From IMG/VR virus record IMGVR_UViG_3300021963_000148, positions 1 to 58,422 of that record: a stretch of 58,422 bases of DNA; one strand, 5' to 3'. The notes under the pieces are model-generated. The model was not told the origin of the DNA and searched no databases. It saw nothing but the letters and a program-made list of their open reading frames with translations. This stretch comes from a virus. Its lineage: Duplodnaviria > Caudoviricetes. This document shows, piece by piece, positions 10,330-45,419 of this stretch (within the stretch, counting starts at the first letter, position 1; every line of letters begins with the position of its first letter). A program made the translations under genes and the position numbers.

Positions 10330-10355
10330 TACTAACATCATAAGCGGAGTGATTG

Positions 10356-21049: not shown

Positions 21050-21994
21050 ATGGAGAAACGCTCTAAAGCATTTTTTATCAACGGCGGTGCGGGCCGTATG
21101 TTATGTTCAGTACCCGCATTTGAAAAATATGAACAAGAGTCCGGCGATAAAGATTTTATCATAGTCTGCGAAGGCGGAACGGATGTGTTCAAAGGGCATC
21201 CTACCTTAGATTCTAGGACCTATGATGTTTGGCACAAAAATCTTTTTGTAGAAAAACTCAAAGACAAAGACATCTATACCATAGAACCTTATCGTGTTTG
21301 GGAATATTACAATCAAAAATGTAGTATTGCTCAAGCAATAGATATTGAAATTAATAAACAAGGTATTAGAGAATTATCAAAACCCACACTACGACTAAGC
21401 AAAGACGAGTTAATTGCTGGTCGTCAATTAATCAGCGAAGTTAAAAAGAAACTAAAAAAAGAAAAAGTAATAGTATTCCAGCCATTTGGCCGTGGCATTG
21501 AATATCTCGATGAATCATTTGTAGACAGAACTTCTAGAAGCATTGAATATAAAGATGTTAAAAAAATAATTCAAAAACTTCAAGAAAAGGGGTTTGCTGT
21601 AATAATGATGAGCGAAATAAAACTTGATTTAACTCAAGAAAAAAATATCAAAGATGAAATAGCATTTCCAGAAAATGTATCAATTAGACAATGGGCTGCT
21701 GTGATAAAATACGCTGATCACTTTTTAGGGTGTGATAGTTTAGGACAACACCTTGCTTATTCTATGGATAGGCCATCGACTGTAGTGTTTGGCTCTACGT
21801 ATCCTATAAATGTTTCTTATCCTAACGCTAAGAACTTTAATATTTTAGACATGGGTGAAGAACTTCGAGAATACAGTCCTATTAGAATCACTATGGATGA
21901 GCGCATTGATAGAAAACATGAAAGTCTTATGACAATGACTCCTGAAATTATTGACTATGTAGTTGACGCTGTAATAGGAAAACATAAAAAATGA
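21050..21994 (+). CDS. GT9-like (heptosyltransferase-family) glycosyltransferase
   Basis: N-terminal GGAGR..., VIVFQPFG, and WAAVIKYADHFLGCDSLGQHLAYSMDRPSTVVFGST matching the GT9 D-S-x-x-x-H-L-A...V-F-G-x-T signature; GGAG RBS. Confidence 0.7.
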   Translation: MEKRSKAFFINGGAGRMLCSVPAFEKYEQESGDKDFIIVCEGGTDVFKGHPTLDSRTYDVWHKNLFVEKLKDKDIYTIEPYRVWEYYNQKCSIAQAIDIEINKQGIRELSKPTLRLSKDELIAGRQLISEVKKKLKKEKVIVFQPFGRGIEYLDESFVDRTSRSIEYKDVKKIIQKLQEKGFAVIMMSEIKLDLTQEKNIKDEIAFPENVSIRQWAAVIKYADHFLGCDSLGQHLAYSMDRPSTVVFGSTYPINVSYPNAKNFNILDMGEELREYSPIRITMDERIDRKHESLMTMTPEIIDYVVDAVIGKHKK

Positions 21995-26030: not shown

Positions 26031-29000
26031 ATGGCAAAGAAAAAGATTAACAATTACGTATTTAGACCGGGCATGAGTTACTTAGGTAACTTAAAACCAA
26101 ACGCCTACGCCAGTATATTAGCAAATAGAGAACACTTAAAAAAGGAACTGTCGGGTTTCATTAATCGTCGTGTTACTGTTGATACTGCGTTTCAATATTA
26201 TCCAGAAGCAATTCGATTATTAACTAATAATAGAACCTACATGCAATACGAAGTTGTTGCGTGGATACAATATCAAGTTGCTAATAATATTGCTCCGTTT
26301 GTTGGTTATACCTACGACAGTGCTAAATGTTTAAGAGATACATTGTATAATATCGATGCGTACATCCATGATTTACGTTACGGCGGCAATGAAGAAACAA
26401 GAAGGATCGCAGGGTTTTATTGGATTGGGTCAACGCCACAAATTGACGGTCCGCGAACTCCAGAAACTGCAGCATATACATTTCTAAGATCGTTAATCAA
26501 CAACTATATTTTAACTAGAACAGCAGCGCCTTCATATCAAGGCACATATTCTCAGTATACTACAAGTCCCTCGGCAGAATCTCAAGTTGCTTCAAAAGTT
26601 ACAGCTCTAACACAGATAACCATTGATGTAATAACCAACGGTCTAAGTTCTTTACCGGCTATTCAATACAAAGCATCTACCTATGAAAATTACACATATA
26701 GTGTAGAAAAATGCGAAAGAGATTTTGGTTTTGTTATTGACGCATATCTAAATGATTTACGATATGACGGTACCGAGGACACTACTCGTGTTGTTAAATT
26801 ATATTATGACGGCGATACACTTCAAGTTGACGGCAGCGGCCAAGCAGAAGTTGAAGCTCATCGATTTATTCGTGAAAGAATAAACTCAAATATTATACAA
26901 AACGTAGTAGGCACAGAAGATTATACAGAAGCCGTGCGACTGTTGACCGAAAATAAAACGTATCTTCAATACGAAGTTACTGCTTGGATTCAAGATCAAA
27001 TAGACACTGCTTCAAAATGTGTTCGAGATATTGGGTATCTTATAGACGGTGTTCAATATGATGTAGTGCTTGGAACAAATTATAACGCAGTCTTTTTAGG
27101 TCTAGCTGAATATAATTCTTTAGACAACGATTTTATTGTGTTAGATACTATTCGACGAGCAGGATTAGAAGTAGCAGACCTAACAGCAGTAGCAGCAAGC
27201 ACCGCTGCTACAACTAGAGCAACAACATTTTTTAACGAAGTTCGTGACATTGCTACTAACGGAAGAACTGCTGCCGATGTAATAACTTTCACAAACCCAA
27301 CATCAGCTACAGCTAGTCAAATTGCTGCCAAAGACAAACTAATAGCAAACAAAAATTTCCTAGCTGCCGAAGTCAATGCTTGGGTAGCTGACACATATCC
27401 GTTACACGATCATGACGAAGCAAAATGTACACGAGATGTCAAGTATGCCATAGACGCTATTTGTTACGACATACTGTATGGTGGCAATTCAGCCACATAC
27501 GATCAGGCTAAATTTTTCTTCTATGGATTTGCCAGCGGCGCACCTGGAATCGATCCAACACATAGATTACAAACTGTAGCAGCGTATGGAAGATTAAAAA
27601 CAATTATAGCTCAGGTAGTACAAGGAGTTCCAGTAATTAAAACAACTACTGGTTCAACTCCAAATACACTAACACAGGTAACTTCTGGTGCTAACGCCAG
27701 CTCTGGTGATGCTACTACTATACAAACATTGGTTCAAATCACTGCCGATGTTGTTAACGCTACGACACAAGCAGCAGCAAATTTAATACTAGCATCTATA
27801 CCCAGAACCTTACCAAATGTTTCGTGGGCACCTACCGCATTACAAAATGCGCAGTCGGCAATAGCAGCCGCAAAAACAACTATTGTTAACGGTGTTGTAG
27901 ATTTCAATGGATTCACTTACGATCAAGCCAAATGTATTCGAGATGCTGGCTATGTGATAGACGCTTATATCTATGATCTACGATATAACGGTAACGAAGA
28001 AACTTATCGTGTTACTACAAAATATTATTATGGCAACGAAATACAAGTTGACGGCGATAGATATCCAGAAGCCTATGCTCATACTTTCTTAAGAAATACT
28101 ATTAACAATTACATATTACCTCGTATTGTTGCGCCGTCTTTTCAAAATGTCTACACACAGGTAACAACTTCTCCGTCGGCCGAAAGTGGTGCTACTTCAA
28201 GAATTACTGCTCTATCTGATGTGTTGATTAATTTGTTGTTAAATGGAACTGGATCATTGCCAGCAATATCATATAGAACTGTTCCATATCAAGTGTTAAC
28301 TCCCCAAGTAGTAACAGTTGGTCTAACCCCAGAAACCGGAGCAGCAGCAAAAATAGTCGAATTGTCAAATATTTTGTTAACATTAATTCCTGGCGGTCTT
28401 AGTGTATTGGCAACACCAATATCAAGTACATATGGTCGACTTAAAATTCAAGGCAAATATACTACCGATGATTTTTTACTGATCACTAATACGTCAACAA
28501 ATAATATTATCTACAATTTTAGTAACATCGACACCGGTGGAACTATTGAACAAGAAGTACTAGAAGACGACGATTTTGTTAAGTTTTTACAAACAACCGA
28601 TGGAGTCACATCGATTAAACTTAACTACGACACGTCGTCAATGAGCAGCAACGATGACATACAAATTTTTGTTGAAAATTCAGAACAGATAGTAAGACCT
28701 TATGATTTTGGCACTGACGCTATTGAACGGCATCGTGTGGCAACACCGCAAAGTATGTTAGATGCTGACTTTGAATACGGTCTCCAACCAACTAAGTGGC
28801 AGGCTATTGCTGTAGCTCGAGGTTATCCAAGTATATACGAAATTCCAGGTACTGATCAAGATGTAACCAGTATTTTGTCAGACGCTTCTGCTGGAACTAG
28901 TGGCGTTGGCGGTTCACTGATCACTGTTACAACTAATTCATCACATGGATTTAGTGTAGGAACTCCAGTTACTATTAGAGGACTAACGCAATCAATACCT

Positions 29001-32000
29001 AGTGTGTCTAGAGCAGAAGGTTCTTTCGTTATCACAGCAGTTCCAACAAATAGAACATTTTCATACTATGCCAAAGCAAGAGTCGGAACAGCAAACCCTA
29101 CAGAGCTGTCAACGACCTTTGCGCAAATTAGACAGGGCGGCTTTTATACCGGTGCTGAAATTGGAACCCCTGTATTCACAGTGACTAGTAATGGTACTAG
29201 CGGAACATTATCTACAGCTTGGAATATTGCCACAAGTTCTAACAGAATAGCATTTACAGGAACTGCTCCGGAACTAGGAGCACCAATAACAGGCACCGGC
29301 CTTGGTGTTGGTTCACAGGTAACTTCAATATTGGGCACCGGCGGTGTAGTAGTTACTCCGTTACTGACTGCTGATTATCCAATAGGCACAACAGTAGTGT
29401 CTGTGTCCAGCACCAGTAGTGTACAAGTTGGACTTGGAGTCAGCGATGGCTCAGGCACAGCAACATTTGTTACAGAAATTAACGGATTAGATCTTACATT
29501 ATCAAGACCTTTAGCAGCAGCTATCAAAGGAAACACAGTTACCTATAGTGGTATATCTGGGACTAATGTCGTAGGTATAGGTAGCAGCGCAACCTTTGAT
29601 ATTACTAGAGATAATACAACCACTTACTCATCAATAATTCTTAATACGCCCGGCACTGATTATGCTGAAGGCGACACTATTAAAATATTAGGCACTGCTC
29701 TTGGCGGCACATCCACAGCAAATGACCTTTATTTAAACGTTGAAACAATTGGCGGTGGTGGATCTATAGTGAGTGTATCTGTTATTGAGGGTGAGGCAAA
29801 TCCTGTAGCTAATCAAACAGTAACAGGTGTTGACAACACTGTTTATACCACAGCAGCAGCAGGAACTGGAGCAGTATTCCAAGTAACAAGATCAGGTAGT
29901 GCGTACACTGCTGGCATAACAACAGCAGGTTCAAATTATTCAAACAGTGAAACTTTTACAGTTCCAGGAACTGTGTTTACCCTTGGAGCAAGTCCAGCAA
30001 ACGATGTTACTATAACTGTGTCACAGGTAGCAAATTCGTATACCAGTATAATACAAGATTCTACAACTGGCGTAGGCAGTGCTGCACAATTTTCAATATC
30101 AAGAAACGGCACTGTGTATTCAGTGACATTAACTAATCCGGGCTCGGCATACATTGACACCGAAGTGCTGACAATATTTGGCACACAACTTGGCGGAGCA
30201 TCGCCTGCTAACGATCTAACAATCAGCGTAGTGTCTACAACGCTCACTGGCGGCATATCTACATTTACAAGTTCAGGATTGGCCAGCAATTTATCAGGAG
30301 CAATCACTGAAGTTGCTGTAACAGGTACTGGAGCATATCAAGTTACCTATACAAATATTGGTGGTTCAAATGTAGCAGCTCTGGGCACATCGGCACAATT
30401 TACTGTGACTAGAACTGGTAGCACCTACAGCTCAATCACTGTTAGCAACGGCGGAACAAATTATCGTGTCGGAAATAAAATATTACTTAGCGGAACCTCA
30501 TTGGGCGGCGCAACCCCTACCAATGATGTTGAAGTAACTGTTGGCACAGTATCCACAGGTGCTATTGTAGATCCTATTTTTATAGGTACACATACTGCTT
30601 CTGCTGGATTTACGTTTGCTTTATATTCTTCAATCACAGTCAGCGAATTTACCACAGCAGTAATACCGCAATCTACTACATTGTCGTTTGCTGCGTTGGC
30701 TACTATTCGAGTAGACTTTTTAGCAGCGCACGGAATACCTCCAGGTGGAGCATTTATTGTAGTTCCTACGTCGGATAACGGCTCAAACAATCACACACTA
30801 GCTGGCGGCTCATACACAGCAACATCTATACCAACTGCTACTTCTTTAAGTTATCAAGCTAGAGCAGCTGGCTCGATTTCAGGAACAATTACTGGAAGAA
30901 TTTATGCAAGACCAGATTCGTTCTTTACACATAGACCATTTGATGGCGGTGTTCAATTGGGCACAGGCGGGCCACAACACGGAGTACAAGCAGTACGTCA
31001 AAGTAAAAAGTATATTCGTTATCAGTCTGGTAAAGGTATCATGTATACCACTGGTGCGTTATTTGCTCCAAGTTACGATATACAAAATATTGTTGCCGAA
31101 GGTGTTGAAGTTGGTTCAGTGATTACAATTACTTTAGATGAAAACGATCATGGTTTTCAAATTGGCGCAAAGGTAAGAATCACTGGAGTAATAACACCTG
31201 GGTACGACAGTAACACAGAATATTATCCAGACGAAGATTACACAGTTACTGAAGTTGTTAGCGAACGAGTATTTCGTGTAACAGCATTAAGAAGACTAGG
31301 ATCAAAAATTCCAACATTAGGATTTAGCTGTCAAGTATCTACCTTAAATTGGAAAGGTGCTGTGGTAAGAGCAGGTGCGTTTGATGATCAAAACGGCATG
31401 TTCTGGGAATACAATGGCGACGAACTAGCAGTAGTTCAACGCTCATCAACCAAACAGCTAGCTGGAACAATCACTGCTGTTCCAGGCAGTAACACAATCA
31501 TAGGAACAAACAGTCGTTTCTTAGATCAACTTAAAGCTGGTGATTTTGTAGTAGTCAAAGGAATGACACATGTGATCACCACAGTGGCCTCAGATACATC
31601 TATAACTGTTAATCCAGATTTCCGTGGTGTTAGCACAGTAACAGGCAGTAAAATATGTTTGGTTACAGACAAGCGAGTGCCTCAGCATGAGTTTAATCGA
31701 GATCGATTAGACGGTACTGGACCAAGCGGCTACAAAGTTGACATTACAAAAATGCAGATGATTGGTATCCAATACACTTGGTATGGTGCTGGATTTATTG
31801 ATTTTATGATACGTGGTAGCGATGGTAATTTTGTGTTTGCGCATCGTATGCGAAATTCCAACGTTAATTCAGAAGCGTTTATGCGTACTGGTAACTTGCC
31901 GGTGAGATATGAAGTTGCTAACTACGGTGCTGTGTCACGATTAACCAGCAGTATTTCACCTTCGGCGTCAACAATACCTGTAGAATCAACAGAATTTTTT

Positions 32001-33863
32001 CCGGATTCGGGTGTTGTGTATGTAGACAACGAACTTATATCTTATACAGGAAAAACAGCCACAACCTTAACTGGCGCTGTTCGTAGTGCGCAATTAAGTA
32101 ATTTCCAATCAGGAGCATTAAGAAGTTACAGAGCAGGAGTTGCCGCTGACCATACTCAGAAAACTGGAGTCATTTTATTAACAAACACTACAACGCCGTT
32201 GATTAGCCACTGGGGTAGTGCGTTTTTAACTGACGGAAGATTTGACGAAGATCGAGGATATTTGTTTAGCTATACATCAACTGGTAACTCAATTTCTACT
32301 ACAAAGAAAACAGTGTTTTTGATTCGATTAGCACCATCTGTATCAAACGCGGTGGTGGGAGACTTAGGGGAAAGAGAACTGTTAAACAGAGCTCAGTTAC
32401 TGCTTAACGAAATTTCTATTGCGTCAGACACAGGCACAGGTGGTATCGTGGTTGAAGGTGTATTGAATCCACAAAACTATCCGTTGAATCCGGGCGACAT
32501 TACATGGGGTAGACTAAGCGGTCTAGCTCAAGGTGGACAACCAAGTTTTGCTCAGATCGCTCCGGGTGGTTCTGTTAACTGGGCAGGCGGCGGATCTTAT
32601 ACATTTACCACAGCTACTGCGCTTAACACAGTAACTGGTAACGCTACTGTTCCTACAGGTACTGCCTTTAACAGAAGTTCTGGAACAACTATTGCGTATG
32701 TTACAAGAACCAGTTGGGACGGTATTGGCGCTGTAGTAGGTCAAGCAGTTTCTGATGCCAAATTTCCATCAGGAACTACAGTAACCGCTAGAACACTTAG
32801 CCCAACACCTACAGCAACTACGTTGCCGCAACTATCATCTTCAGCACAACGAGTATTCACGATAGGGTCTGGCAGCTTTGTATTGTATTATTATCAAGCA
32901 AGTTGGGCAACATTACAAGGATCAACTACAGTAACTGACATTTTTACCAATGATACTAGCTTGTTTGCTGACGGCACATACGTAACAGCCGTAACAGGAC
33001 CAAGCGGCGGCTATTATACTGTTTCTTTCAGCACCCCTACACTAAGAAACAGTAACAACAATGAGTTTAATTCGTTTAGATTTGCTGGTAATAGAGCTAT
33101 TGGAAATACCATACATTTCTTCCAACAAGCTAGCTGGGCTGCTTTACCTGTTGATGTTATCGCAGGACAAACAACCAACGATGGCAAGTTTAGTGGTGGA
33201 ACTCAAATTAGTTCTGTAAGTACCCTAAGAACATTTGCGGGAACTAGTTATTATGCTGTGACTTTTAACGCAGGAAATACTGCTTTAGTTTCTGCCAGTG
33301 GTACTGTGACGTTTAATACAACGTTGTATTACACACTATCGTTTAGTAGAGCATCAACATCTGCGGTTAATAACACTAATAATATTACATTTTCGTTGGC
33401 ACAATCTACTGCTAATACTTCTACAATTTACTTTACACAAGCAAGTTGGGAAGCATCAGGCGCAGCAGCCAACACTGAAATTGCTACAACAGAAACTAAG
33501 TTTCCTGCTGGTACTCGTGTACAATCAGTAAGTACTTTACAAACATTTGCCAGCACGACCTATTACACTGTTACGTTTACTCAGACAACAAACGTTGTGA
33601 TAACTGGCGGCAATACAGTACAGTTCCAATTTGGTAATCCGCCTTATGCGTTACCGGGCGAAACTATATTTTCGTTCATTACCAATCCGGGCTCTACAGA
33701 CGCACTGAGTTTGAATAGTTTGAAAGAATTAACAACTACAGCACTTGGTGGTCGTGGCACATTCCCAAATGGTCCTGACGTATTGGCTATTAACGTGTAT
33801 AAGGTATCAGGAACAGCGGTTCCGGCAAATATTATTTTGCGTTGGTCTGAAGCTCAAGCCTAA
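26031..33863 (+). CDS. Giant virion structural protein (2610 aa) with five KCxRD helical repeats and Ser/Thr/Gly-rich beta repeats
   Basis: KC(L/E/V/T/I)RD...IDA...D.RY.G repeats; SMLDADFEYGLQPTKW; G..Y...D.I.I.GT.LGG..P.ND repeats; RQSKKYIRYQSGKG; IQYTWYGAG. Confidence 0.75.
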   Translation: MAKKKINNYVFRPGMSYLGNLKPNAYASILANREHLKKELSGFINRRVTVDTAFQYYPEAIRLLTNNRTYMQYEVVAWIQYQVANNIAPFVGYTYDSAKCLRDTLYNIDAYIHDLRYGGNEETRRIAGFYWIGSTPQIDGPRTPETAAYTFLRSLINNYILTRTAAPSYQGTYSQYTTSPSAESQVASKVTALTQITIDVITNGLSSLPAIQYKASTYENYTYSVEKCERDFGFVIDAYLNDLRYDGTEDTTRVVKLYYDGDTLQVDGSGQAEVEAHRFIRERINSNIIQNVVGTEDYTEAVRLLTENKTYLQYEVTAWIQDQIDTASKCVRDIGYLIDGVQYDVVLGTNYNAVFLGLAEYNSLDNDFIVLDTIRRAGLEVADLTAVAASTAATTRATTFFNEVRDIATNGRTAADVITFTNPTSATASQIAAKDKLIANKNFLAAEVNAWVADTYPLHDHDEAKCTRDVKYAIDAICYDILYGGNSATYDQAKFFFYGFASGAPGIDPTHRLQTVAAYGRLKTIIAQVVQGVPVIKTTTGSTPNTLTQVTSGANASSGDATTIQTLVQITADVVNATTQAAANLILASIPRTLPNVSWAPTALQNAQSAIAAAKTTIVNGVVDFNGFTYDQAKCIRDAGYVIDAYIYDLRYNGNEETYRVTTKYYYGNEIQVDGDRYPEAYAHTFLRNTINNYILPRIVAPSFQNVYTQVTTSPSAESGATSRITALSDVLINLLLNGTGSLPAISYRTVPYQVLTPQVVTVGLTPETGAAAKIVELSNILLTLIPGGLSVLATPISSTYGRLKIQGKYTTDDFLLITNTSTNNIIYNFSNIDTGGTIEQEVLEDDDFVKFLQTTDGVTSIKLNYDTSSMSSNDDIQIFVENSEQIVRPYDFGTDAIERHRVATPQSMLDADFEYGLQPTKWQAIAVARGYPSIYEIPGTDQDVTSILSDASAGTSGVGGSLITVTTNSSHGFSVGTPVTIRGLTQSIPSVSRAEGSFVITAVPTNRTFSYYAKARVGTANPTELSTTFAQIRQGGFYTGAEIGTPVFTVTSNGTSGTLSTAWNIATSSNRIAFTGTAPELGAPITGTGLGVGSQVTSILGTGGVVVTPLLTADYPIGTTVVSVSSTSSVQVGLGVSDGSGTATFVTEINGLDLTLSRPLAAAIKGNTVTYSGISGTNVVGIGSSATFDITRDNTTTYSSIILNTPGTDYAEGDTIKILGTALGGTSTANDLYLNVETIGGGGSIVSVSVIEGEANPVANQTVTGVDNTVYTTAAAGTGAVFQVTRSGSAYTAGITTAGSNYSNSETFTVPGTVFTLGASPANDVTITVSQVANSYTSIIQDSTTGVGSAAQFSISRNGTVYSVTLTNPGSAYIDTEVLTIFGTQLGGASPANDLTISVVSTTLTGGISTFTSSGLASNLSGAITEVAVTGTGAYQVTYTNIGGSNVAALGTSAQFTVTRTGSTYSSITVSNGGTNYRVGNKILLSGTSLGGATPTNDVEVTVGTVSTGAIVDPIFIGTHTASAGFTFALYSSITVSEFTTAVIPQSTTLSFAALATIRVDFLAAHGIPPGGAFIVVPTSDNGSNNHTLAGGSYTATSIPTATSLSYQARAAGSISGTITGRIYARPDSFFTHRPFDGGVQLGTGGPQHGVQAVRQSKKYIRYQSGKGIMYTTGALFAPSYDIQNIVAEGVEVGSVITITLDENDHGFQIGAKVRITGVITPGYDSNTEYYPDEDYTVTEVVSERVFRVTALRRLGSKIPTLGFSCQVSTLNWKGAVVRAGAFDDQNGMFWEYNGDELAVVQRSSTKQLAGTITAVPGSNTIIGTNSRFLDQLKAGDFVVVKGMTHVITTVASDTSITVNPDFRGVSTVTGSKICLVTDKRVPQHEFNRDRLDGTGPSGYKVDITKMQMIGIQYTWYGAGFIDFMIRGSDGNFVFAHRMRNSNVNSEAFMRTGNLPVRYEVANYGAVSRLTSSISPSASTIPVESTEFFPDSGVVYVDNELISYTGKTATTLTGAVRSAQLSNFQSGALRSYRAGVAADHTQKTGVILLTNTTTPLISHWGSAFLTDGRFDEDRGYLFSYTSTGNSISTTKKTVFLIRLAPSVSNAVVGDLGERELLNRAQLLLNEISIASDTGTGGIVVEGVLNPQNYPLNPGDITWGRLSGLAQGGQPSFAQIAPGGSVNWAGGGSYTFTTATALNTVTGNATVPTGTAFNRSSGTTIAYVTRTSWDGIGAVVGQAVSDAKFPSGTTVTARTLSPTPTATTLPQLSSSAQRVFTIGSGSFVLYYYQASWATLQGSTTVTDIFTNDTSLFADGTYVTAVTGPSGGYYTVSFSTPTLRNSNNNEFNSFRFAGNRAIGNTIHFFQQASWAALPVDVIAGQTTNDGKFSGGTQISSVSTLRTFAGTSYYAVTFNAGNTALVSASGTVTFNTTLYYTLSFSRASTSAVNNTNNITFSLAQSTANTSTIYFTQASWEASGAAANTEIATTETKFPAGTRVQSVSTLQTFASTTYYTVTFTQTTNVVITGGNTVQFQFGNPPYALPGETIFSFITNPGSTDALSLNSLKELTTTALGGRGTFPNGPDVLAINVYKVSGTAVPANIILRWSEAQA

Positions 33864-33867
33864 ACCG

Positions 33868-33897
33868 TTGACATCTTAGGGTCATACCGTATAAAAT
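33868..33897 (+). promoter_or_regulatory. Sigma70-like promoter TTGACA-N18-TAAAAT
   Basis: TTGACA at 33868-33873, TAAAAT at 33892-33897, ATG 5 nt downstream; the -10 is flanked by the inverted repeat GGGTCATAC/GTATGACCC. Confidence 0.6.
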
Positions 33898-33902
33898 ATA
33901 GT

Positions 33903-34295
33903 ATGACCCGAATATTCGTTAACGGCACTTTTGACATTTTACATATTGGACATCTAGAACTGCTGAAATATGCTCGCAGTTTAGGTGACCATCTCACCGT
34001 TGGCATTGACTCTGATGCTAGAGTATCCAGGCTCAAAGGCCCAACTCGACCAATAAACAATCAACAAGAACGAACAACAATGTTACAGCATCTACGATCA
34101 GTTGATGATGTTGTAGTTTTTGATACAGAACAAGAACTAGTTGATCTTATTGCCAATTCGGATATTATAGTCAAAGGCAGCGACTATCAAGGAAAGCCTA
34201 TTGTAGGCGCACATGTTAGTAAGCAATTAGTATTTTTTGAAAGAATCGATGGATATTCAACAACAGAAAAAATTCAAGATATTATTGATCGGTGA
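33903..34295 (+). CDS. hldC: Heptose-1-phosphate nucleotidyltransferase (HldE domain II / HldC-like)
   Basis: NGTFDILHIGH (HIGH motif), VGIDSD..V.RLKGPTRPIN, VKGSDY, GYSTT. Confidence 0.85.
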   Translation: MTRIFVNGTFDILHIGHLELLKYARSLGDHLTVGIDSDARVSRLKGPTRPINNQQERTTMLQHLRSVDDVVVFDTEQELVDLIANSDIIVKGSDYQGKPIVGAHVSKQLVFFERIDGYSTTEKIQDIIDR

Positions 34296-34998
34296 CAACT
34301 GCCTTGACATATATCAATACGGCACCGTAGATAGAATCAGTCCAGAAGCCCCTGTGCCAGTGTTTAAGTTTAGCTACGAAGAACACAGTCCGGGTATGGC
34401 TGGCAATGTTGCTTGTAATCTAAAAGCACTAGGCTGTGATGTTGACTACTTACACGGAGAGACTAGTACAAAAACTAGACTTGTAGATATTCGCAGTAAA
34501 CAACAGATTGTTAGAATAGATAATGATGTTGTTTCACAACCTATTGAATTTGAAACAGCAATACCTAAAATCTATGATGCTATTGTTATCAGCGACTACG
34601 ATAAAGGCACAGTGTCTTACGATATTATTGAAGAAGCTATTGCTACTAGAATGCCTGTGTTTGTTGACACAAAAAAAACAGATCTAGAACGACTTCAAGG
34701 TGCTTGGGTTAAAATTAACGAATTAGAATACAGCAAAATTAAATCTGAGTGTACAGGATTAATAGTTACCAAAGGTGCTAAAGGCGCAGTAATACCACAT
34801 CATGAATTTTCTTCTTCTGCTCCTGTGGTTGAAGTAGTGGATGTTACCGGAGCTGGAGACACATTTCTAGCTGCGTTAACGTATATGTATCTAGAAACAA
34901 AACAAATTACATCTGCTGTAGATTTTTCTAACAAAGCTGCGTCAATAACAGTACAACACGTAGGTTGTTATGCTCCAAATTTAAAGGAAATAAAATGA
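34249..34998 (+). CDS. hldA: Heptose-7-phosphate kinase (HldE domain I / HldA-like, PfkB family)
   Basis: IGD.CLD.Y.YG.VDRISPEAPVPV, GMAGNVA.NL, KTR, SDYDKG, VDVTGAGDTF. Start taken at ATG 34249 (TTG at 34237 is an alternative). Confidence 0.88.
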   Translation: MDIQQQKKFKILLIGDNCLDIYQYGTVDRISPEAPVPVFKFSYEEHSPGMAGNVACNLKALGCDVDYLHGETSTKTRLVDIRSKQQIVRIDNDVVSQPIEFETAIPKIYDAIVISDYDKGTVSYDIIEEAIATRMPVFVDTKKTDLERLQGAWVKINELEYSKIKSECTGLIVTKGAKGAVIPHHEFSSSAPVVEVVDVTGAGDTFLAALTYMYLETKQITSAVDFSNKAASITVQHVGCYAPNLKEIK

Positions 34999-35393
34999 CA
35001 CAATTACAAGGTTATCAAGAAAAAGGGTGGGGTTACGAATTAATATTTGCCACCAACGAGCATTATACAGGAAAAATTTTATGCTTTACAAAAGTAGGTG
35101 CTAAGTTCAGCATGCACTTTCACAAAGACAAAGTAGAAACTTGGTTTGTTAATACTGGAAAATTTAAAGTTCGATGGATAGATACTAGTAACGCAATCCT
35201 TTTTGAAAAGGAACTTAACACCGGCGACACTTGGCATAATCCTCCACTTCAGCCACATCAATTAGAAGCACTAACACCAAACGCAATGATTTTTGAAGTA
35301 AGCACTGCGGATTCTGTTGAAGACAATTATAGAATTATTCCAGGTGACAGTCAAGTAGTGTTGCCCGCAGACGGTGAAGGTACATTGTCATGA
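34995..35393 (+). CDS. Cupin, mannose-6-phosphate isomerase type II-like
   Basis: KGWGYE...FSMHFH..K.ETW...GD.WHNPP.QPHQL...FEVST; ATG at 34995 with AAGGA RBS and ATGA overlap. Confidence 0.75.
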   Translation: MTQLQGYQEKGWGYELIFATNEHYTGKILCFTKVGAKFSMHFHKDKVETWFVNTGKFKVRWIDTSNAILFEKELNTGDTWHNPPLQPHQLEALTPNAMIFEVSTADSVEDNYRIIPGDSQVVLPADGEGTLS

Positions 35394-35881
35394 ACATCTA
35401 TCTAGACATGGATGATGTAGTTGCTGATTGGTTTGGCTACGCTAGAGCCTATCTCAAAGAACCGTTTTTTAAAGATGGCGACTTACTGCCTGAGACAACT
35501 TGGCGTAGGCTCAAAGATGATCAGCGAATGTATAGTAAGCTGCCAATAAAAGAAGGAGCTCACGAATTAGTAAAATGGGTCACTGATTATAAAACAAAAA
35601 CAAACTGTGGATTGTATTTTTTAAGTGCTATTCCTAAAGGCAATGACATGCCATGGGCTCCACAGGATAAAGTATTTTGGGCATTTGAAAATTTCCCACA
35701 CATTCCAGTATTTCTTGGTCCTTACAGCTATGAAAAACATATGCACTGTCGTAACGTAGGCGACATTCTAATTGACGACAGGACCTCAAATTGCGAAGAA
35801 TGGATTCAAGCTGGCGGCCGAGCACACATTTATAAAGATTGGCCTAATTGTAAAACTTGGCTGGAGAAGACCCTAGGATGA
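35390..35881 (+). CDS. HAD phosphatase, 5'(3')-deoxyribonucleotidase (NT5C)-like
   Basis: IYLDMDDVVADW (DxD motif I), FLSA, K..W, ILIDDR..NC.EW..AGG. Confidence 0.75.
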   Translation: MNIYLDMDDVVADWFGYARAYLKEPFFKDGDLLPETTWRRLKDDQRMYSKLPIKEGAHELVKWVTDYKTKTNCGLYFLSAIPKGNDMPWAPQDKVFWAFENFPHIPVFLGPYSYEKHMHCRNVGDILIDDRTSNCEEWIQAGGRAHIYKDWPNCKTWLEKTLG

Positions 35882-36750
35882 TAGTAGTTACTGGCGCAGC
35901 GGGATTTATAGGATCTAATATAGTTCATGGCCTAAACAAACTAGGACGCACTGACATTATCTGTGTTGACAATTCTCGTGCTAATATAGAGTTGACCTAT
36001 GACAAATGGCTTTCTATTGACGAGTTTTATGAAGAATTTAACAAATGGAATAAAGTTGAGGTTGTTTATCACGAGGGTGCGATATCTAGTACAACAGAAC
36101 GTGATAAAAATCTAATACACAGAAAAAATAAAAATCCCACAGTGTTTCTTATAGATAAAGCAATCGAACATGATTTTCTTTTATCATATGCTAGCTCTGC
36201 TAGTGTGTATGGAGCCGGGCCGTTGTTTAAAGAAAATCAATCTCTCGATCCTAGATCTTTGTACGCACAAAGCAAAGCCGACACAGATTACTATACCGCT
36301 ATCAAACTATTAGAAAATCCTAGAGCTAAGTTACAAGGCTGGAGATATTTTAATGTATATGGCAATGGTGAAAAGCACAAAGGAGCGCAGGCAAGTCCTA
36401 TACACAAGTTTTCTCAACAGGCACAGATAGAAGGAACTGTGTTTGTATTCAAAGGCAGTGAAAATTTTCTAAGAGATTTTATCTGTGTTGATGATATTGT
36501 TAATATTAAATTGTCAGTAGGACACTGGCACAGCGGTATATTCAATTTAGGCACAGGCACAGTTATTTCTTTCAAAGATGTAGCTGAGCTTGTTGCTAAA
36601 AAATACAATGCTTCGATAAAAGAAATTGAATTTCCTGCTGAATTAGAAGGGCAGTATCAGACGTACACCTGTGCTGATATAGAAAAATTAAAATCAGTGA
36701 TTGGGGATTACCAATTTATTTCGGTAAAAGATTTTCTAGATCGACTCTAA
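35878..36750 (+). CDS. hldD: ADP-L-glycero-D-manno-heptose 6-epimerase
   Basis: MIVVTGAAGFIGSNIV, HEGAISSTTE, YASSASVYG, YAQSK, RYFNVYGNGEKHKGAQAS, RDFI, YQTYTCAD. Confidence 0.88.
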   Translation: MIVVTGAAGFIGSNIVHGLNKLGRTDIICVDNSRANIELTYDKWLSIDEFYEEFNKWNKVEVVYHEGAISSTTERDKNLIHRKNKNPTVFLIDKAIEHDFLLSYASSASVYGAGPLFKENQSLDPRSLYAQSKADTDYYTAIKLLENPRAKLQGWRYFNVYGNGEKHKGAQASPIHKFSQQAQIEGTVFVFKGSENFLRDFICVDDIVNIKLSVGHWHSGIFNLGTGTVISFKDVAELVAKKYNASIKEIEFPAELEGQYQTYTCADIEKLKSVIGDYQFISVKDFLDRL

Positions 36751-40165: not shown

Positions 40166-40930
40166 ATGAGCCAACTAGATCAAGAAAAACAAAAAGTCTA
40201 CGATTACTGTAAAACTATGCTGGGCGACGGTATGGTTGACGTTGAACTAGACCCAAAACACTACGAAACAGCACTAGATCGTGCCCTTGCTATTTTTAGA
40301 CAGCGCAGCGATAATTCTGTAGAAGAGAGCTTTGCTTTTTTAACACTTCAACTTGACCAGAACGAATACATACTGCCCAAAGAAATACAAGTAGTACGTG
40401 AAATATATCGAAGAAGCATAGGGTCAAAATCGGGTGGCGGCAACGGCGGTACTGTTTTTGAACCATTTAACTTAGCCTACACAAACACTTATTTGTTATC
40501 ATCAACAAACATGGGTGGGCTTTTAACCTACGAATTATTTGCCCAATATCAAGAACGTGTAGGTAAAATGTTTGGTAGCTTTATTCAATTTACTTGGCAT
40601 GCGCAAAGTCGTAAATTAACAATACATCAAAGACCAAGATCCGACGAGGAACTAATGCTTTGGGTATACAACACACGCCCAGACCACGCTATACTTACAG
40701 ACACTTACGCTAATATCTGGATCAAAGATTATACTTTGGCTAATTGTAAGATGATGTTAGGTCAAGCTCGTGAAAAATTTGCTGGCATAGCTGGTCCACA
40801 GGGAGGCACACAGCTAAACGGAGCGGCCCTCAAACAAGAAGCTGCTGCTGATATCGAAAGACTAACCGCAGAATTAGTTAACTATGTTCCAGGACACGCC
40901 AACGCAGGATATACATTTGTGATTGGCTAA
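40166..40930 (+). CDS. Neck protein, T4 gp13-like
   Basis: YCKTMLG...VDVELD...ALD.AL; WIKDYTLA.CK.MLG.AR.KF..I.GPQGG.QLNG..LK.EA; ends FVIG. Confidence 0.8.
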   Translation: MSQLDQEKQKVYDYCKTMLGDGMVDVELDPKHYETALDRALAIFRQRSDNSVEESFAFLTLQLDQNEYILPKEIQVVREIYRRSIGSKSGGGNGGTVFEPFNLAYTNTYLLSSTNMGGLLTYELFAQYQERVGKMFGSFIQFTWHAQSRKLTIHQRPRSDEELMLWVYNTRPDHAILTDTYANIWIKDYTLANCKMMLGQAREKFAGIAGPQGGTQLNGAALKQEAAADIERLTAELVNYVPGHANAGYTFVIG

Positions 40931-40988: not shown

Positions 40989-41636
40989 ATGATCATAGGA
41001 ATCTGCGGTTTTATTGGTACTGGCAAAGACACCATTGCTGACTATCTGGTAAACTTTCATGAGTTTCGTAGGGACAGTTTTGCTAACACGCTTAAAGATG
41101 CTGTAAGTGCTGTATTTGGTTGGGACCGAGTTATGTTAGAAGGTCGTACCAAAGAAGCTCGTGAGTGGCGTGAGCAAGTAGATCCGTGGTGGGCAGAACG
41201 TCTAAACATGCCACATCTAACTCCTAGATGGGTACTACAATATTGGGGCACAGAAGTTTGCCGCAAAGGTTTTAATGACGATATTTGGATTGCTAGCTTA
41301 GAAAATAAGCTCAGTAAAAGTCAAGATAACATTGTAATCAGCGATGTGCGTTTCCCTAACGAAGTAGCAGCTATAAAACGTGCCGGTGGTATGGTCATAC
41401 GAGTAGTTCGTGGCGATGAACCTGTTTGGTTTGACACTGCTAGACTTGCTTGCCAAGGCGATAAAACAGCGTTAGAAACAATGGCAACTGAGCATCGCAT
41501 TCACGCATCTGAATGGGCTTGGGCAAACACTGATTTTGACGTAGTTGTTGATAACAATGGAACTATTGATGACCTGTTTAAACAAAGCGAACTACTGGTT
41601 AAAAATCAGCAGTTAGATCTCCTTGTTTCCATTTAA
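40989..41636 (+). CDS. Deoxynucleoside monophosphate kinase, T4 gp1-like
   Basis: IIGICGFIGTGKDT P-loop, FA..LKD, TPR..LQ.WGTE..R, VISDVRFPNE, HASE, NNGTIDDL. Confidence 0.9.
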   Translation: MIIGICGFIGTGKDTIADYLVNFHEFRRDSFANTLKDAVSAVFGWDRVMLEGRTKEAREWREQVDPWWAERLNMPHLTPRWVLQYWGTEVCRKGFNDDIWIASLENKLSKSQDNIVISDVRFPNEVAAIKRAGGMVIRVVRGDEPVWFDTARLACQGDKTALETMATEHRIHASEWAWANTDFDVVVDNNGTIDDLFKQSELLVKNQQLDLLVSI

Positions 41637-45000: not shown

Positions 45001-45419
45001 ACAATGTCAAAGTTAACCCACTAACATTCTTTAACGGTGTTGGCCTAGTTAACTATGGTCAAAGAACACGATCAGCTGGAAGTTCAGCACTTGATCGTAT
45101 TAACGTAGCACGTCTAGTAGTTTATCTAAGAACACAGCTGAATAAACTAGCTAAACCGTTTGTTTTTGAACCTAACGATAAGATCACTAGAGACGAAATC
45201 AAACAGGCAATTGAAAGTCTATTGTTAGAGTTAACTGGTTTACGAGCAATCTATGACTATGCTGTTGTATGTGATGAAACAAACAATACACCAGCAAGAA
45301 TAGACAGAAACGAGTTGTATGTTGATATCGCAATAGAACCTGTAAAAGCTATTGAATTTATCTACATACCATTAAGACTTAAGAACACAGGAGAGATTCA
45401 GGGCGCAAGAGCATCGTAA
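42042..45419 (+). CDS. Contractile tail sheath protein, T4 gp18-like, with large insertion
   Basis: MALTSPGVQV...; PWFAPAGIRRG; LY..KVNP; GQRT...SALDRINVARL; FEPND..TR; VVCDETNNTP.RIDRNEL.VDI.I.P.KA.EFI. Confidence 0.93.
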   Translation: MALTSPGVQVTVNDESFYTPAEAGTTPLIIVATAQNKSNASGTGIARGTLAANIGTVYRVSSQRELVDFYGTPTFKRTISGSSRNGDEQNEYGLQAAYSFLGISNTAYIARADINLNDLSGTSTVPGSEASEGQWWLDTQSTKWGIFEWDASPASLGGQKFVAKTPIVLSESDADKIDGNEPASGVGKVGDYAVVAKSDVIRYFYKGKDYTGLATSAAWTLVGSKDWRGTSPTIVTTTAGYASSGLSSSGYKFIINGVSITVGSGNDLATEMVSLINGYAIQGVRAGVVNGKVGFFVTSNTDEAGDSTDTEGASITFQTSPENPSITIASIFGFAEGQYFAPDLAIAPHTTVPQWKAGTQEPRPSGSVWVKSTEPNSGARWRIKKWNSSSKAWIETVAPLYSAGHTAIYGLDKASGGEKISKDAVYVQYNYSEDTGYDDTPQTASFKIFVRRATGATAIVSDQIGTGTLSAGSKSFTIRESVLGSRLLGTPDPLGISAPAPVTITFTAASNATDANAIAEAINASTLVNVEASVSNGKLVISHKLGGEFRLLDTNDALADIGYTGFNISNGDGTVDLYDAPAGETYDFIASNWLPMAGSATGYVADMDPPLNDPTDGQLWYSSSLNQIDIMVHDGNTWVGYLNEFPSADPAGPIISATKPVKQSDGASNLAAGDLWIDSSDTENYPTVYRWNTDTLKWVQIDTGDNTSEEGILFADARWTTGPGAGTESTEPADIADLLVSDFLDFDAPDPELYPQGMLLWNTRRSGFNVKAYRADYVSTEDDNPRQGDESMADYQPARWVTVSGSTFGRKAQRQVIVAALKATITTNQQIREDEVRSFNLIACPGYPEVLQNLVDLNNDRGGTAFVVGDSPMRLAADTTSITNWGSNANGATDNGDSGLVTYDPYAAVFYPSGLTNDNTGNSIVVPASHMMLKTIALSDQVAYPWFAPAGIRRGAITNATAVGYIDTTSGEFKSVSLTEGQRDALYNVKVNPLTFFNGVGLVNYGQRTRSAGSSALDRINVARLVVYLRTQLNKLAKPFVFEPNDKITRDEIKQAIESLLLELTGLRAIYDYAVVCDETNNTPARIDRNELYVDIAIEPVKAIEFIYIPLRLKNTGEIQGARAS

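Follow-up and report, generated by a model that had tools for sequence, protein, structure and literature searches.

The closest described route to nucleotide-activated heptose is the GmhA/HldE/GmhB/HldD pathway of Escherichia coli, whose five steps are the same as those proposed below and whose transferase, kinase, and epimerase have homologues in the phage locus described here. In viruses, heptose kinases and nucleotidyltransferases have been reported to make ADP-heptose (Tang et al., Science 2024, as described in the commentary PMC11461863). The survey in that work searched by homology for the canonical isomerase and the canonical phosphatase, and, as far as two commentaries on it show, makes no mention of a cupin isomerase or of alternative HADs. 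Genomes of cyanomyophages carry an 'LPS/heptose' module (T4-GC 304-308; carriers include P-SSM2, S-SSM7, S-SM2, S-CAM1, and P-TIM68) that comprises the same set of nucleotidyltransferase, kinase, small HAD, cupin, and epimerase, and often adjoins carbamoyltransferase and tail-fibre-like genes. This heptose module, long recorded in cyanomyophage genomes, is mis-annotated there: the phosphatase, a 107-aa mini-HAD (TIGR01689-like, 3e-8), is labelled 'phosphoheptose isomerase' in the records, and the cupin 'putative nucleotidyltransferase' or 'cysteine dioxygenase'.

Cupins are known to perform sugar phosphate isomerizations. The archaeal cupin-type phosphoglucose isomerase is a small metal cupin that catalyzes an aldose-ketose reaction done elsewhere by SIS-fold enzymes; it belongs to a different cupin family from the phage cupin. 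Between them, 73 members of the phage cupin family match 13 Pfam families, and PF06560 is not one of these. Nearer to the phage protein are the cupin domains of type II phosphomannose isomerases (PMI), represented by the mannose-6-phosphate isomerase (MPI) of cyanophage S-SCSM1 and, according to excerpts of PMC9602691, by the C-terminal domain of AlgA/PslB. The S-SCSM1 enzyme shares the fold, and its motifs follow one another in the same order (K/R-x-W-G, S-x-(Q/H)-x-H, Glu, distal His), whereas its first ligand is Gln rather than His and its partners are GDP-mannose/fucose rather than heptose genes.

The present locus lies in a window (the whole stretch of DNA analysed, 58,422 bp) that is a complete IMG/VR record with a CheckV completeness of 17%; the phage of origin has a genome of ~350 kb, so the window is a fragment. 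The five overlapping genes of the original prediction (nucleotidyltransferase, kinase, cupin, HAD phosphatase, and epimerase) were confirmed as co-oriented open reading frames at 33903-36750 on the plus strand, forming a translationally coupled operon of a ~350 kb aquatic myophage. The features are as follows.

33868..33897 (+), promoter-like site (TTGACA, 18 nt, TAAAAT), with the first gene 5 nt downstream
33903..34295 (+), nucleotidyltransferase (NT), HldE domain II-like, 130 aa; PF01467, TIGR02199, phrog_7878
34237..34998 (+), shortened pfkB sugar kinase, HldE domain I-like, ~243-253 aa; TIGR02198, phrog_8133
34995..35393 (+), metal cupin, type-II-PMI-like, 132 aa from ATG; proposed sedoheptulose-7-phosphate isomerase
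35390..35881 (+), HAD phosphatase with small C1 cap, NT5C-like by sequence, 163 aa; PF06941, phrog_2643
35878..36750 (+), HldD-like ADP-glyceromanno-heptose 6-epimerase (SDR), 290 aa from ATG; TIGR02197

The NT and kinase frames overlap by ~50 nt, and ATGA start/stop overlaps join kinase to cupin, cupin to HAD, and HAD to epimerase. The start of the kinase is uncertain, at TTG 34237 (253 aa) or ATG 34249; the listed frames of the cupin and the epimerase open at TTG 34965 and TTG 35857, with ATG starts at 34995 and 35878, respectively. The promoter-like site agrees with the consensus at 11 of 12 positions, a consensus match only, and carries little weight because the 4 kb region contains 21 such sites where shuffled sequence would give 13.5. 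Compared with the cyanomyophages, in which the epimerase is frequently on the opposite strand, the present operon is co-oriented and belongs to a much larger, uncultured phage; its cupin and kinase are 33-42% and 36-46% identical to their cyanomyophage counterparts. Compared with the E. coli pathway, kinase and transferase are separate genes, the kinase is ~70 residues shorter, and a cupin and a capped HAD are found instead of the SIS-fold GmhA and the HAD-IIIA GmhB.

The putative roles of NT, kinase, and epimerase are assigned by homology to HldE domain II, HldE domain I, and HldD, with catalytic motifs present in all three, while all three fall below the NCBIfam equivalog cut-offs. The NT matches CTP_transf_like (PF01467, 9.7e-18), phrog_7878 (4.4e-42), and, as the best of 13 families matched and over its full length, rfaE_dom_II (TIGR02199, 6.3e-34; 116.9 bits, cut-off 181.5). 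Its translation contains H-I-G-H at residues 14-17 and a C-terminal R-I-D-G-Y-S-T-T, corresponding to H-x-G-H and G-x-S-T-T motifs whose definitions draw in part on PMC11461863; the Arg five residues before S-T-T fits the 'STTR5' motif that PMC11461863 links to the additional use of CTP and UTP. The kinase matches PfkB above the cut-off (PF00294, 3.8e-22), phrog_8133 (1.2e-89), and rfaE_dom_I (TIGR02198, 1.6e-46; 158.9 bits, cut-off 345), the last in three stretches of a protein of ~243 aa against a 315-position profile, and has the D-x-T-G-A-G-D motif of pfkB enzymes as D-V-T-G-A-G-D. The epimerase narrowly misses the cut-off of heptose_epim (TIGR02197, 1.1e-72; 244.9 bits, cut-off 274.6), which it covers from position 1 to 304 of 316, and carries the SDR motifs GxxGxxG and YxxxK as G-A-A-G-F-I-G and Y-A-Q-S-K.

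The best explanation for the whole, which we favour at slightly better than even confidence on the strength of comparative sequence analysis, is that the operon builds nucleotide-activated L-glycero-beta-D-manno-heptose from the central metabolite sedoheptulose-7-phosphate. In the proposed pathway, the cupin would first isomerise the ketose sedoheptulose-7-phosphate to the manno-aldose, which is the reaction of GmhA in bacteria and the proposed seven-carbon counterpart of the conversion of fructose-6-phosphate to mannose-6-phosphate; the two ketoses have the same configuration at C1-C5. The pfkB kinase would phosphorylate C1 of the heptose-7-phosphate, the HAD encoded after the cupin may, with less confidence, take off the 7-phosphate, the cytidylyltransferase-fold enzyme would join heptose-1-phosphate and an NTP into NDP-heptose, and the HldD-like SDR would epimerise C6''.

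The original prediction noted no gmhA or gmhB in the window, and searches agree. Nothing in the window matched TIGR00441, tblastn with E. coli GmhA found nothing below E 2, and searches for a GmhB-like or mini-HAD gene were negative across the 58,422 bp. As the record is 17% complete, absence from the window says little; it became meaningful because complete relatives were searched. The relative G001 (363,943 bp, 100% complete) has the same five-gene order with 71-89% protein identity and yielded no SIS_2 and no GmhB-like match. Overall, SIS_2 found no match in any of 11 phage genomes that are complete or nearly so, nor in any of 100 viral records (0/50 with the cupin, 0/50 with the GmhB-like phosphatase), and none of the 13 phage records matched by tblastn with E. 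coli GmhA was a cupin record. Since the cupin is a jelly roll without a SIS domain, it would, if it performs the GmhA reaction, be an analogue of GmhA rather than a member of its family.

The cupin is inferred to be a diverged relative of type II PMI with a His/His/Glu/His metal site. It matches Cupin_2 (1.9e-6), and its structural model is an all-beta jelly roll (pLDDT 93.7). Of the metal-site residues, H43 and H88 do not vary across alignment A2, while H41 and E48 are conserved in 90% of the rows or more. When the profile of the 73-member cupin family was compared by hhalign with the type II MPI of S-SCSM1, a single-domain protein, the probability was 96.7% (E 3.9e-10, 103 columns); KGWG lies opposite KPWG and S-x-H-x-H opposite S-x-Q-x-H, and the Glu and distal His pair with their equivalents. 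Relative to the PMI motif, the Ser, second His, Glu, and distal His are aligned, Lys replaces Arg, and the Gln that serves PMIs as first metal ligand is replaced by His, which 90% or more of the A2 rows have. The Ser and Lys/Arg positions serve phosphate binding and catalysis in PMI, according to excerpts of PMC9602691.

This relationship raises the possibility that the cupin is an ordinary mannose-6-phosphate isomerase, carried as an auxiliary metabolic gene for central carbon metabolism or GDP-mannose supply and placed among sugar genes without a role in heptose synthesis. Many members are called 'mannose-6-phosphate isomerase-like protein' by JGI, MannoseP_isomer (PF01050) is matched by 33 of the 73, and the small S-SCSM1 cupin of a GDP-mannose/fucose cluster has been published as an MPI (excerpts of PMC9602691). 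Such a role is nonetheless very unlikely: the genes that accompany the family are those for heptose kinase, transferase, and HldD rather than mannose genes; neither mannose-1-phosphate guanylyltransferase nor phosphomannomutase is seen in the operon; pairwise identity to the S-SCSM1 MPI is just 24%; and, judging from the HldD reaction, a C6'' epimerase would have no substrate in a hexose pathway. The window's own cupin is below threshold for PF01050 (E 0.01), while the cupin part of a fused protein (P0134) reaches 31 bits against a cut-off of 23.6.

Family matches and fold comparisons leave room for a different role, in which the cupin acts later, on the nucleotide sugar, as a metal-dependent epimerase or isomerase of an SDR keto intermediate in the manner of CapF or WbuC, and the first isomerisation is left to the host or to an unrecognised phage enzyme. 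Besides PF01050, the 73 members match Lyx_isomer (29/73) and, almost as often as these isomerase families, PF14667 (25/73), which we take to be a CapF-like cupin. The fold search returned generic metal cupins only (oxalate decarboxylase, quercetinase, KdgF, D-lyxose isomerase, and the CapF cupin at E 1.9e-7), and the WbuC family is a weak match (2.4e-4). The motif-by-motif alignment to PMI, including the Ser and Lys/Arg positions, argues against this later role, as do the 0 of 73 members with RmlC or FdtA Pfam matches.

Genomic context bears on the same question. The same cupin is found alongside heptose genes in hundreds of other phages. A search with the cupin gave 575 viral loci; of the best 80, 75 contain NT, kinase, or epimerase and 72 contain all three, leaving 5 in which the cupin stands without heptose genes. 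A GmhB-like phosphatase profile gave 401 viral loci, and in the best 80 of these cupin, kinase, and epimerase are each present in 80/80. In a collection of phage records, 31 of the 35 with the kinase were among the 35 with the cupin. The loci are sampled from related phage lineages, so these counts are not independent events. In one genome (G003, 94% complete), the cupin lies ~207 kb away from NT-kinase-epimerase. In phage Bellamy, the cupin belongs to a GDP-type cluster, with an HddA-like kinase (7.2e-83) on one side and an HddC-like transferase (4.2e-17) on the other, so that the cupin stays constant while its partners switch anomer and nucleotide type.

Linkage alone cannot separate a first-step from an NDP-sugar role, because the cupin is just as constantly accompanied by an SDR (72/80 of the best of 575 loci, 80/80 of the best of 401). 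The Bellamy cupin also adjoins 4,6-dehydratase-like and RmlD-like genes, a setting that a cupin epimerase would suit in Campylobacter pathways, and the commonest fused type, NT-cupin (10 of 19 longer cupin forms, one cluster having 93 members), is compatible with either role. The remaining fusions join the cupin to two kinds of HAD phosphatase, NT5C-like (P0134, 3 cluster members, on several contigs) and mini-HAD (P0153, 4 members, and P0135), which points to the sugar-phosphate stage rather than the nucleotide sugar. Moreover, neither a 4,6-dehydratase nor a C4 oxidase occurs in the operon or the ADP-type clusters, and with a late-acting cupin no isomerase for the pathway would be left in 10 phage genomes that carry the cupin and are complete or nearly so. 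The cultured phages among these, like the other cultured carriers of the heptose module, infect cyanobacteria; heptoses are reported not to be present in cyanobacterial LPS, according to excerpts of a review (PMC4390846). A role of the cupin on the nucleotide sugar is accordingly improbable, though somewhat less so than that of an ordinary MPI. The cupin is most probably the first-step sedoheptulose-7-phosphate isomerase, a role well supported, if indirectly, by PMI homology, linkage, fusions, and the lack of SIS/GmhA; the predicted replacement of GmhA by the cupin thus has comparative support.

The HAD protein is a candidate heptose-1,7-bisphosphate 7-phosphatase, a weaker claim than that for the cupin. 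By sequence it resembles 5'(3')-deoxyribonucleotidases: it matches NT5C (PF06941) over 136 residues at 4.9e-5 and 23.7 bits, just below the cut-off of 24.8, and phrog_2643 at 7.9e-20, the annotation of which agrees with NT5C. The motif I region, D-M-D-D-V-V-A-D-W, we likewise take to resemble NT5C. Across 26 sequences, none of the superfamily residues D6, D8, K94, K116, D129, and D130 varies, and the structural model (pLDDT 91.6) has a Rossmann-like core with a helical insert after motif I. The assignment to NT5C is soft, as the Pfam match is below its cut-off, 0 NCBIfam families match, and Foldseek with the model returned weak matches without any NT5C structure, the best being generic HADs and HisB-N with TM ~0.5 (HisB-N: 4.1e-4, TM 0.53).

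Such a protein could be a deoxyribonucleotidase or general phosphatase that arrived in the operon by chance, with the 7-phosphate removed by a phosphatase of the host or one of low specificity, or the step dispensable; this is compatible with the cupin as isomerase and is a serious contender, at somewhat less than an even chance. Among the best 80 of 215 HAD loci, 71 have zero heptose genes within 5 kb. Two close copies (L085, 75% identity, in a record without the cupin, and L118, 69%) have a head-tail adaptor-like gene on one side and a dNMP kinase on the other, and a third (L162, 57%) is near nrdB-like and glutaredoxin-like ORFs, as read by eye. The heptose role of the HAD is undercut because close orthologues, 57-75% identical, are mostly away from heptose genes. 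The in-operon HADs form one clade nested within the stand-alone copies, and no residues set them apart. Furthermore, 33 of the best 80 of 575 cupin loci (~40%) have heptose genes but none of three HAD types, a locus collinear with the window (L013) has none either, and, according to a commentary (PMC11461863) on Tang et al. 2024, viruses lack the phosphatase although viral enzymes made ADP-heptose in vitro.

Against chance arrival, the HAD sits exactly where other loci have mini-HAD or GmhB-like genes, and ATGA overlaps couple it to both of its neighbours: all three HAD types (NT5C-like, mini-HAD, and GmhB-like) are seen adjoining the cupin, and another locus collinear with the window (L022) has a mini-HAD between cupin and epimerase. 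The in-operon position is retained among copies down to 73% identity, the NT5C-like HAD is itself fused to the cupin on several contigs, and in the complete relative G001 the NT5C-like HAD is present and a GmhB-like gene is not, while G002 shows the opposite. Under the pathway proposed here, a stand-alone phage HAD gene would have been recruited into the slot of the GmhB-like or 107-aa mini-HAD phosphatases. The original proposal that five genes map onto five steps is therefore plausible and partly supported, well if indirectly in its cupin half and less so in the replacement of GmhB by the HAD, for which the slot and one fusion family speak and against which stand the stand-alone orthologues and the ~40% of clusters that are HAD-less.

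Two further genes, 12 kb upstream of the heptose operon, suggest a use for its product.

21050..21994 (+), GT9-family glycosyltransferase, heptosyltransferase-like, 314 aa; PF01075
21991..23820 (+), NodU/CmcH-type carbamoyltransferase, 609 aa; its start lies within the 3' end of the GT9 gene

The GT9 protein matches PF01075 at 5.4e-8 (32.9 bits, cut-off 22), with weak matches to RfaQ and heptosyltransferases I and III; the donor-binding C-terminal half alone is matched, and scores against NCBIfam equivalogs are far below cut-offs. From its neighbourhood only, GT9 is probably the consumer of the NDP-heptose, which it would use, perhaps together with the carbamoyltransferase, to modify a phage or host surface structure. 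The carbamoyltransferase is recognized by Carbam_trans_C (3.1e-58), Carbam_trans_N (1.4e-29), and NodU (1.7e-41), and such a gene is also found beside the heptose module in S-CAM1, Sf-FS3, and P-SSM2 according to the record annotations.

The record of 58,422 bp has no end repeats and is rated 17% complete by CheckV. In addition to the tail sheath, it codes for tail-tube, large terminase, head-tail adaptor-like and sheath-stabiliser-like proteins, together with gp32-like and RecA/UvsX-like proteins, a repertoire typical of a large contractile-tailed phage. Relatives reside on contigs of 345-364 kb that are rated 94-100% complete, which puts the parent genome at probably ~350 kb. The features relevant here are:

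4195-10302, 10353-16619 and 26031-33863: three giant ORFs of 2035, 2088 and 2610 aa, rich in Gly, Thr and Ser
21050-21994: GT9-family (heptosyltransferase) gene, 12 kb upstream of the operon and ahead of a giant ORF
21991-23820: NodU-type carbamoyltransferase gene, overlapping the GT9 gene
33903-36750 (+): five heptose ORFs, starting directly after the 2610-aa ORF
40166-40930: head-tail adaptor-like gene
40989-41636: dNMP kinase (PF21448), inside the structural module between the head-tail adaptor-like gene and the tail sheath
42042-45419: tail sheath

The five-gene heptose operon of the original prediction is present as described, with overlapping genes, and the feature belongs to the NDP-heptose modules already known from viruses. 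In profile searches, the first gene product is a cytidylyltransferase-fold protein nearest to HldE domain II, and the second is a pfkB kinase, shortened and nearest to HldE domain I. They are followed by a Cupin_2 protein, a HAD phosphatase, and an SDR protein nearest to HldD, with ATGA overlaps at the kinase/cupin, cupin/HAD, and HAD/epimerase junctions. The three 'Hld' matches are top hits by a wide margin, yet they score under the NCBI equivalog cut-offs, and hence the proteins are named HldE-like and HldD-like and not as members of these families. A weakly evidenced promoter-like site is located immediately upstream of the first gene.

The cupin had been proposed to replace GmhA, the SIS-fold sedoheptulose-7-phosphate isomerase. 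Its sequence harbors a classical two-motif cupin metal site, and its AlphaFold model, for which 73 diverse relatives were used, shows one jelly roll with high confidence (pLDDT 93.7). In an alignment of 14 sequences, H43 and H88 are invariant, as are K10, W12, G13, E15, K27, S39, K46, E101, D110, and R113, and H41 and E48 are kept in at least 90% of rows. Foldseek with the model retrieved generic metal cupins only, as did the PDB-chain search with the cupin profile, in which oxalate decarboxylase is the top match; the structural and PDB matches include sugar isomerases (D-lyxose/D-mannose isomerase, Z5688), KdgF, and the CapF cupin, and leave the function unassigned. When the 73 relatives were scanned singly against Pfam, 33 matched type II phosphomannose isomerase (PMI), 29 D-lyxose isomerase, 25 PF14667, and none an RmlC- or FdtA-type model; the window cupin itself matches only Cupin_1, Cupin_2, and PF14667.

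Profile comparison of the cupin family with the 'MPI' of cyanophage S-SCSM1 gave a 96.7% probability over nearly the whole domain, placing K-G-W-G on K-P-W-G and S-x-H-x-H on S-x-Q-x-H, with the Glu and the distal His in register. In the S-SCSM1 study (PMC9602691), this MPI is a single-domain type II enzyme whose Ser is assigned to phosphate binding; the Gln is assigned to catalysis and ring opening, zinc is bound by the His, and a catalytic role is given to the Arg/Lys preceding W-G. Its gene neighbours encode GDP-mannose dehydratase, GDP-fucose synthase, and fucosyltransferases, a setting in which it is very likely a true PMI. In contrast, the window-cupin family, 24% identical to it, is partnered by heptose genes and by its sequences constitutes a separate, essentially viral branch. 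More than 3,000 protein clusters of the viral cupin/'MPI' class were recovered; a Protein Atlas search returned viral cupin clusters only, and a single-protein scan of genome contigs with the cupin gave only 3 loci, all on MAG contigs resembling phage DNA. A 76%-identical cupin is present on 335 kb and 153 kb contigs (L164, L165) of a MAG labelled Candidatus Neomarinimicrobiota. The former agrees in size with jumbo phage genomes, and the contigs could be phage sequence misbinned with bacterial DNA or could point to the host.

The cupin search yielded 575 viral loci, and the neighbourhoods of the best 80 (66-98% identity) were surveyed with a reach of 6 kb. Of these best 80, 75 have one or more of the three heptose genes, 73 have kinase plus transferase, and 72 have all three, with the cupin alone in five. 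A sample drawn without recourse to the cupin was based on a profile of the canonical-looking GmhB-like phosphatases (~205 aa, D-R-D-G-V-I-N) seen beside the cupin; a scan with a single GmhB-like protein found 19 close relatives, and the alignment-based profile found 401 viral loci. Among the best 80 of the 401, cupin, kinase, and epimerase are each present at all 80, a GmhA-like sequence is present at none, and the cupin lies at most 60 bp upstream of the phosphatase at 43. These clusters consist of HldE, HldD, GmhB, and the cupin, and are therefore the canonical set with the cupin in GmhA's place. The loci stem from related phages, and the counts thus overstate independent events.

The kinase and the cupin were each found in 35 records of the phage collection, and 31 records have both. 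The kinase without the cupin occurs in four records: a Salmonella contig, a fragment of 5.5 kb, and two copies of a megaphage (LR756501) whose kinase stands alone, without heptose neighbours. Two of the four cupin-only records are of Synechococcus phage Bellamy, where a run at 4973-8774 of locus L172 encodes an HddA-like GHMP kinase (7.2e-83), the cupin, an HddC-like transferase (4.2e-17), an RmlD-like protein, and a GDP-mannose-dehydratase-like protein, with no HAD seen beside it. In appearance, this cyanophage run is a cluster of the GDP-6-deoxy-heptose type, and we take it to resemble the GDP-alpha-heptose/6-deoxy-heptose route of Yersinia and Campylobacter. Kinase, anomer, and nucleotide set the two heptose routes apart, and the isomerase and phosphatase steps are common to them; judged by gene content, the cupin tracks the common portion.

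One relative, G003 (345 kb, 94% complete; L073, L163), has its cupin ~207 kb from the nucleotidyltransferase-kinase-epimerase genes, next to tail-fibre-like genes and two tryptophan-halogenase-type flavoprotein-like genes (by eye), and searches of this genome gave no HAD of the GmhB-like or NT5C-like type. Also by eye, 2OG-Fe(II) oxygenase-like ORFs are interspersed among heptose genes in several relatives, at viral loci L016 (3866-4486 and 5291-6004) and L163 (8037-8606), and prolyl-4-hydroxylase-like genes are annotated inside the heptose cluster of Sf-FS3.

The absence of gmhA, originally noted for the window, was followed into other phage genomes and records. Pfam SIS_2, for which the E. 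coli control was positive, was unmatched in 11 complete or near-complete phage genomes, 10 of them cupin-bearing; the 11 are the three near-complete ~350 kb relatives, P-SSM2, S-SSM7, S-SM2, P-TIM68, Bellamy, and megaphage LR756501, as well as S-CAM1 and Sf-FS3, scanned at E 0.1. At E 0.01, SIS_2 matched none of 50 records, mostly longer contigs, picked from the 80 cupin-sampled viral records and none of 50 sampled via GmhB-like genes, most of these 100 records being fragments. In a tblastn search, E. coli GmhA matched 13 of 50,697 phage records, including Caulobacter phage Cr30 and one megaphage; no cupin record is among the 13, and a GmhA homologue and the kinase occur together in a single Salmonella contig of the collection. 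TIGR00441 at E 0.1 had no match in the control genome, Synechococcus elongatus, and cyanobacterial LPS is reported in a review to be devoid of KDO and heptoses (PMC4390846).

Fusion proteins were sought among representative proteins (1683 matches at E 0.001) and 'longer' forms (19 matches), and they reveal three partners of the cupin, namely the NT5C-like HAD, the mini-HAD (a 107-aa phosphatase of cyanophage modules), and the heptose nucleotidyltransferase. The NT5C-like HAD of fusion P0134 is 29% identical to the window HAD, and this cluster has 3 members on contigs of up to 53 kb. The mini-HAD is joined to the cupin in P0153 (4 members), P0135 (484 aa), and P0291 (490 aa); the last two share an extra C-terminal region of ~250 aa that matched no Pfam family when P0135 was scanned. 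Of the 19 longer forms, 10 are nucleotidyltransferase-cupin fusions, whose clusters reach 93 members. The cupin-phosphatase fusions argue for action at the sugar-phosphate stage, and the cupin-transferase fusion fits any pathway role. The proposal that the cupin stands in for GmhA draws on PMI homology, linkage in two differently drawn samples, occurrence in both pathway variants, the fusions, and the lack of SIS genes, and from these comparative lines of sequence evidence we infer that the cupin would act as the isomerase. This idea was not found in the open-access literature searched.

The gene set of the window operon is also present in the cultured cyanomyophages P-SSM2, S-SSM7, S-SM2, S-CAM1, S-CAM3, P-TIM68, S-T4, Sf-FS3, Sf-CH5/8, P-SSM5, and S-SSM6a. 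Older cyanophage records number the module genes as T4-like gene clusters 304-308, and a genome announcement lists 'heptose-related LPS genes' for such a cyanophage (PMC7378029). At the DNA level, the phage collection gave only short matches of 70-74% in 8 Synechococcus phage records. The cyanomyophage module encodes kinase, transferase, epimerase, phosphatase, and cupin but no recognisable isomerase. The label 'phosphoheptose isomerase' is instead carried by mini-HADs of 107-108 aa:

L001:6732-7055: mini-HAD of S-CAM1
L002:7325-7651: mini-HAD of Sf-FS3

The mini-HADs in the P-SSM2, S-SSM7, S-SM2, and P-TIM68 records bear the same label. The mini-HAD matches the capsule-biosynthesis HAD phosphatase model TIGR01689 (3e-8) and HAD-IIIA (0.04) and has the D-x-D-G-T motif; no SIS domain was found in the 107-108 aa proteins. 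The cyanophage cupin, 39% identical to that of the window, goes under 'putative nucleotidyltransferase' or 'cysteine dioxygenase', and both labels, the HAD as isomerase and the cupin as nucleotidyltransferase or dioxygenase, look like inherited misannotations. In S-SM2 (L169) and P-TIM68 (L170), a protein annotated as 'transketolase central region' is encoded directly upstream of the heptose kinase and could supply sedoheptulose-7-phosphate; the mini-HAD occurs twice in the S-SM2 run, which also includes a class II aldolase.

The window HAD had been put forward as a replacement of the HAD-IIIA phosphatase GmhB. Its best Pfam match is NT5C, with a score just below the family cut-off, and its model (pLDDT 91.6) gave weak generic HAD matches only in Foldseek, with HisB-N second; the NT5C assignment is soft. 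GmhB-like, mini-HAD, and NT5C-like HAD genes are each seen adjoining the cupin. The viral locus L022 keeps the gene order of the window between the giant ORF and the dNMP kinase, except that its cupin-epimerase slot is occupied by a mini-HAD. In the complete relative G001, the NT5C-like HAD is present and a GmhB-like gene is absent, with the opposite in G002.

The HAD search returned 215 viral loci. Among the best 80 examined, 71 have no heptose gene within 5 kb, six have the HAD in the operon slot, two have the cluster ~3 kb off, and one has an epimerase-like match 5 kb off. The HAD copies at L085 (75% identity) and L118 (69%) immediately precede the dNMP kinase, as insertions between homologues of window 40166-40930 and 40989-41636, and at L162 the HAD is near ribonucleotide reductase beta-like and glutaredoxin-like ORFs (both by eye). 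The cupin is absent from the 135 kb record of L085, and heptose genes are absent from the 17 kb upstream. No residue separates in-operon from stand-alone HADs; in the HAD tree, five in-operon copies and one stand-alone copy form a well-supported clade (96/98) nested among stand-alone copies, a topology consistent with the one-time recruitment of a gene that already existed.

Heptose genes and cupin, yet none of the three HAD types, are present at 33 of the best 80 cupin loci, and L013 is collinear with the window with the HAD absent; thus, the phage may do without the phosphatase or obtain it in trans. In line with this, a commentary states that viral enzyme sets made ADP-heptose although a viral phosphatase was not found (PMC11461863). 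The slot, the HAD-cupin fusion, and the G001/G002 exchange speak for a pathway role of the window HAD, and its position makes a stand-in for GmhB plausible; the locations of its orthologues, mostly away from heptose genes, contradict this in part, and a pathway role is about evenly balanced.

The heptose module is set among tail, fibre, and neck genes in the window and in cyanophages, and a carbamoyltransferase adjoins the heptose genes in S-CAM1, Sf-FS3, and P-SSM2. A reasonable guess is that the product decorates the virion fibre or the host envelope, and the three giant ORFs are candidate fibre proteins and candidate targets of glycosylation. The C-terminal part of the 2610-aa ORF is kept in relatives with an adjoining heptose module. 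In the window transferase, an Arg is positioned five residues ahead of S-T-T; by the description of the STTR5 motif in the commentary (PMC11461863), CTP and UTP are predicted to be possible substrates as well.

A broader reading is advanced only tentatively, and we regard it as rather doubtful in its entirety. The viral type II PMI-cupin branch would be a phage phosphoheptose isomerase, a non-orthologous replacement of the SIS-fold GmhA, and the abundant 'viral mannose-6-phosphate isomerase/cupin' pool of ocean viromes would partly feed heptose synthesis and not central carbon; the three unrelated HAD types beside the cupin (GmhB-like, 107-aa mini-HAD, and NT5C-like) would be interchangeable, and the phage GT9, perhaps with the carbamoyltransferase, would heptosylate phage fibres or the envelope of heptose-less hosts. 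Were the cupin the isomerase, the heptose pathway would gain a second, structurally unrelated entry enzyme. Such a role of the cupin, if true, would correct a twenty-year chain of cyanophage annotations ('phosphoheptose isomerase' for a HAD; 'nucleotidyltransferase' or 'cysteine dioxygenase' for the cupin) and change how the abundant viral cupin/'MPI' genes of marine viromes are read. It would also account for NDP-heptose being made by cyanobacterial phages themselves, the host LPS reportedly being without heptose, and, with GmhB-like genes at 401 viral loci, would qualify the published claim of no pathway phosphatase in viruses.

Two further loci of the window were observed. A 146-aa ORF (47706-48146) that matches the N-terminal domain of TnsA-like endonucleases (1e-22) lies between the tail-tube and terminase genes and may have been inserted there in the manner of a homing endonuclease. 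At the window edge, 56539-58231 constitutes a second sugar-nucleotide locus, in which a 262-aa UDP-glucose/GDP-mannose dehydrogenase-like protein with N-terminal and central domains only (56539-57327, +) converges with an NAD-dependent epimerase/dehydratase (57302-58231, -; Epimerase, 1.5e-56) that is 28% identical to the HldD-like gene product.
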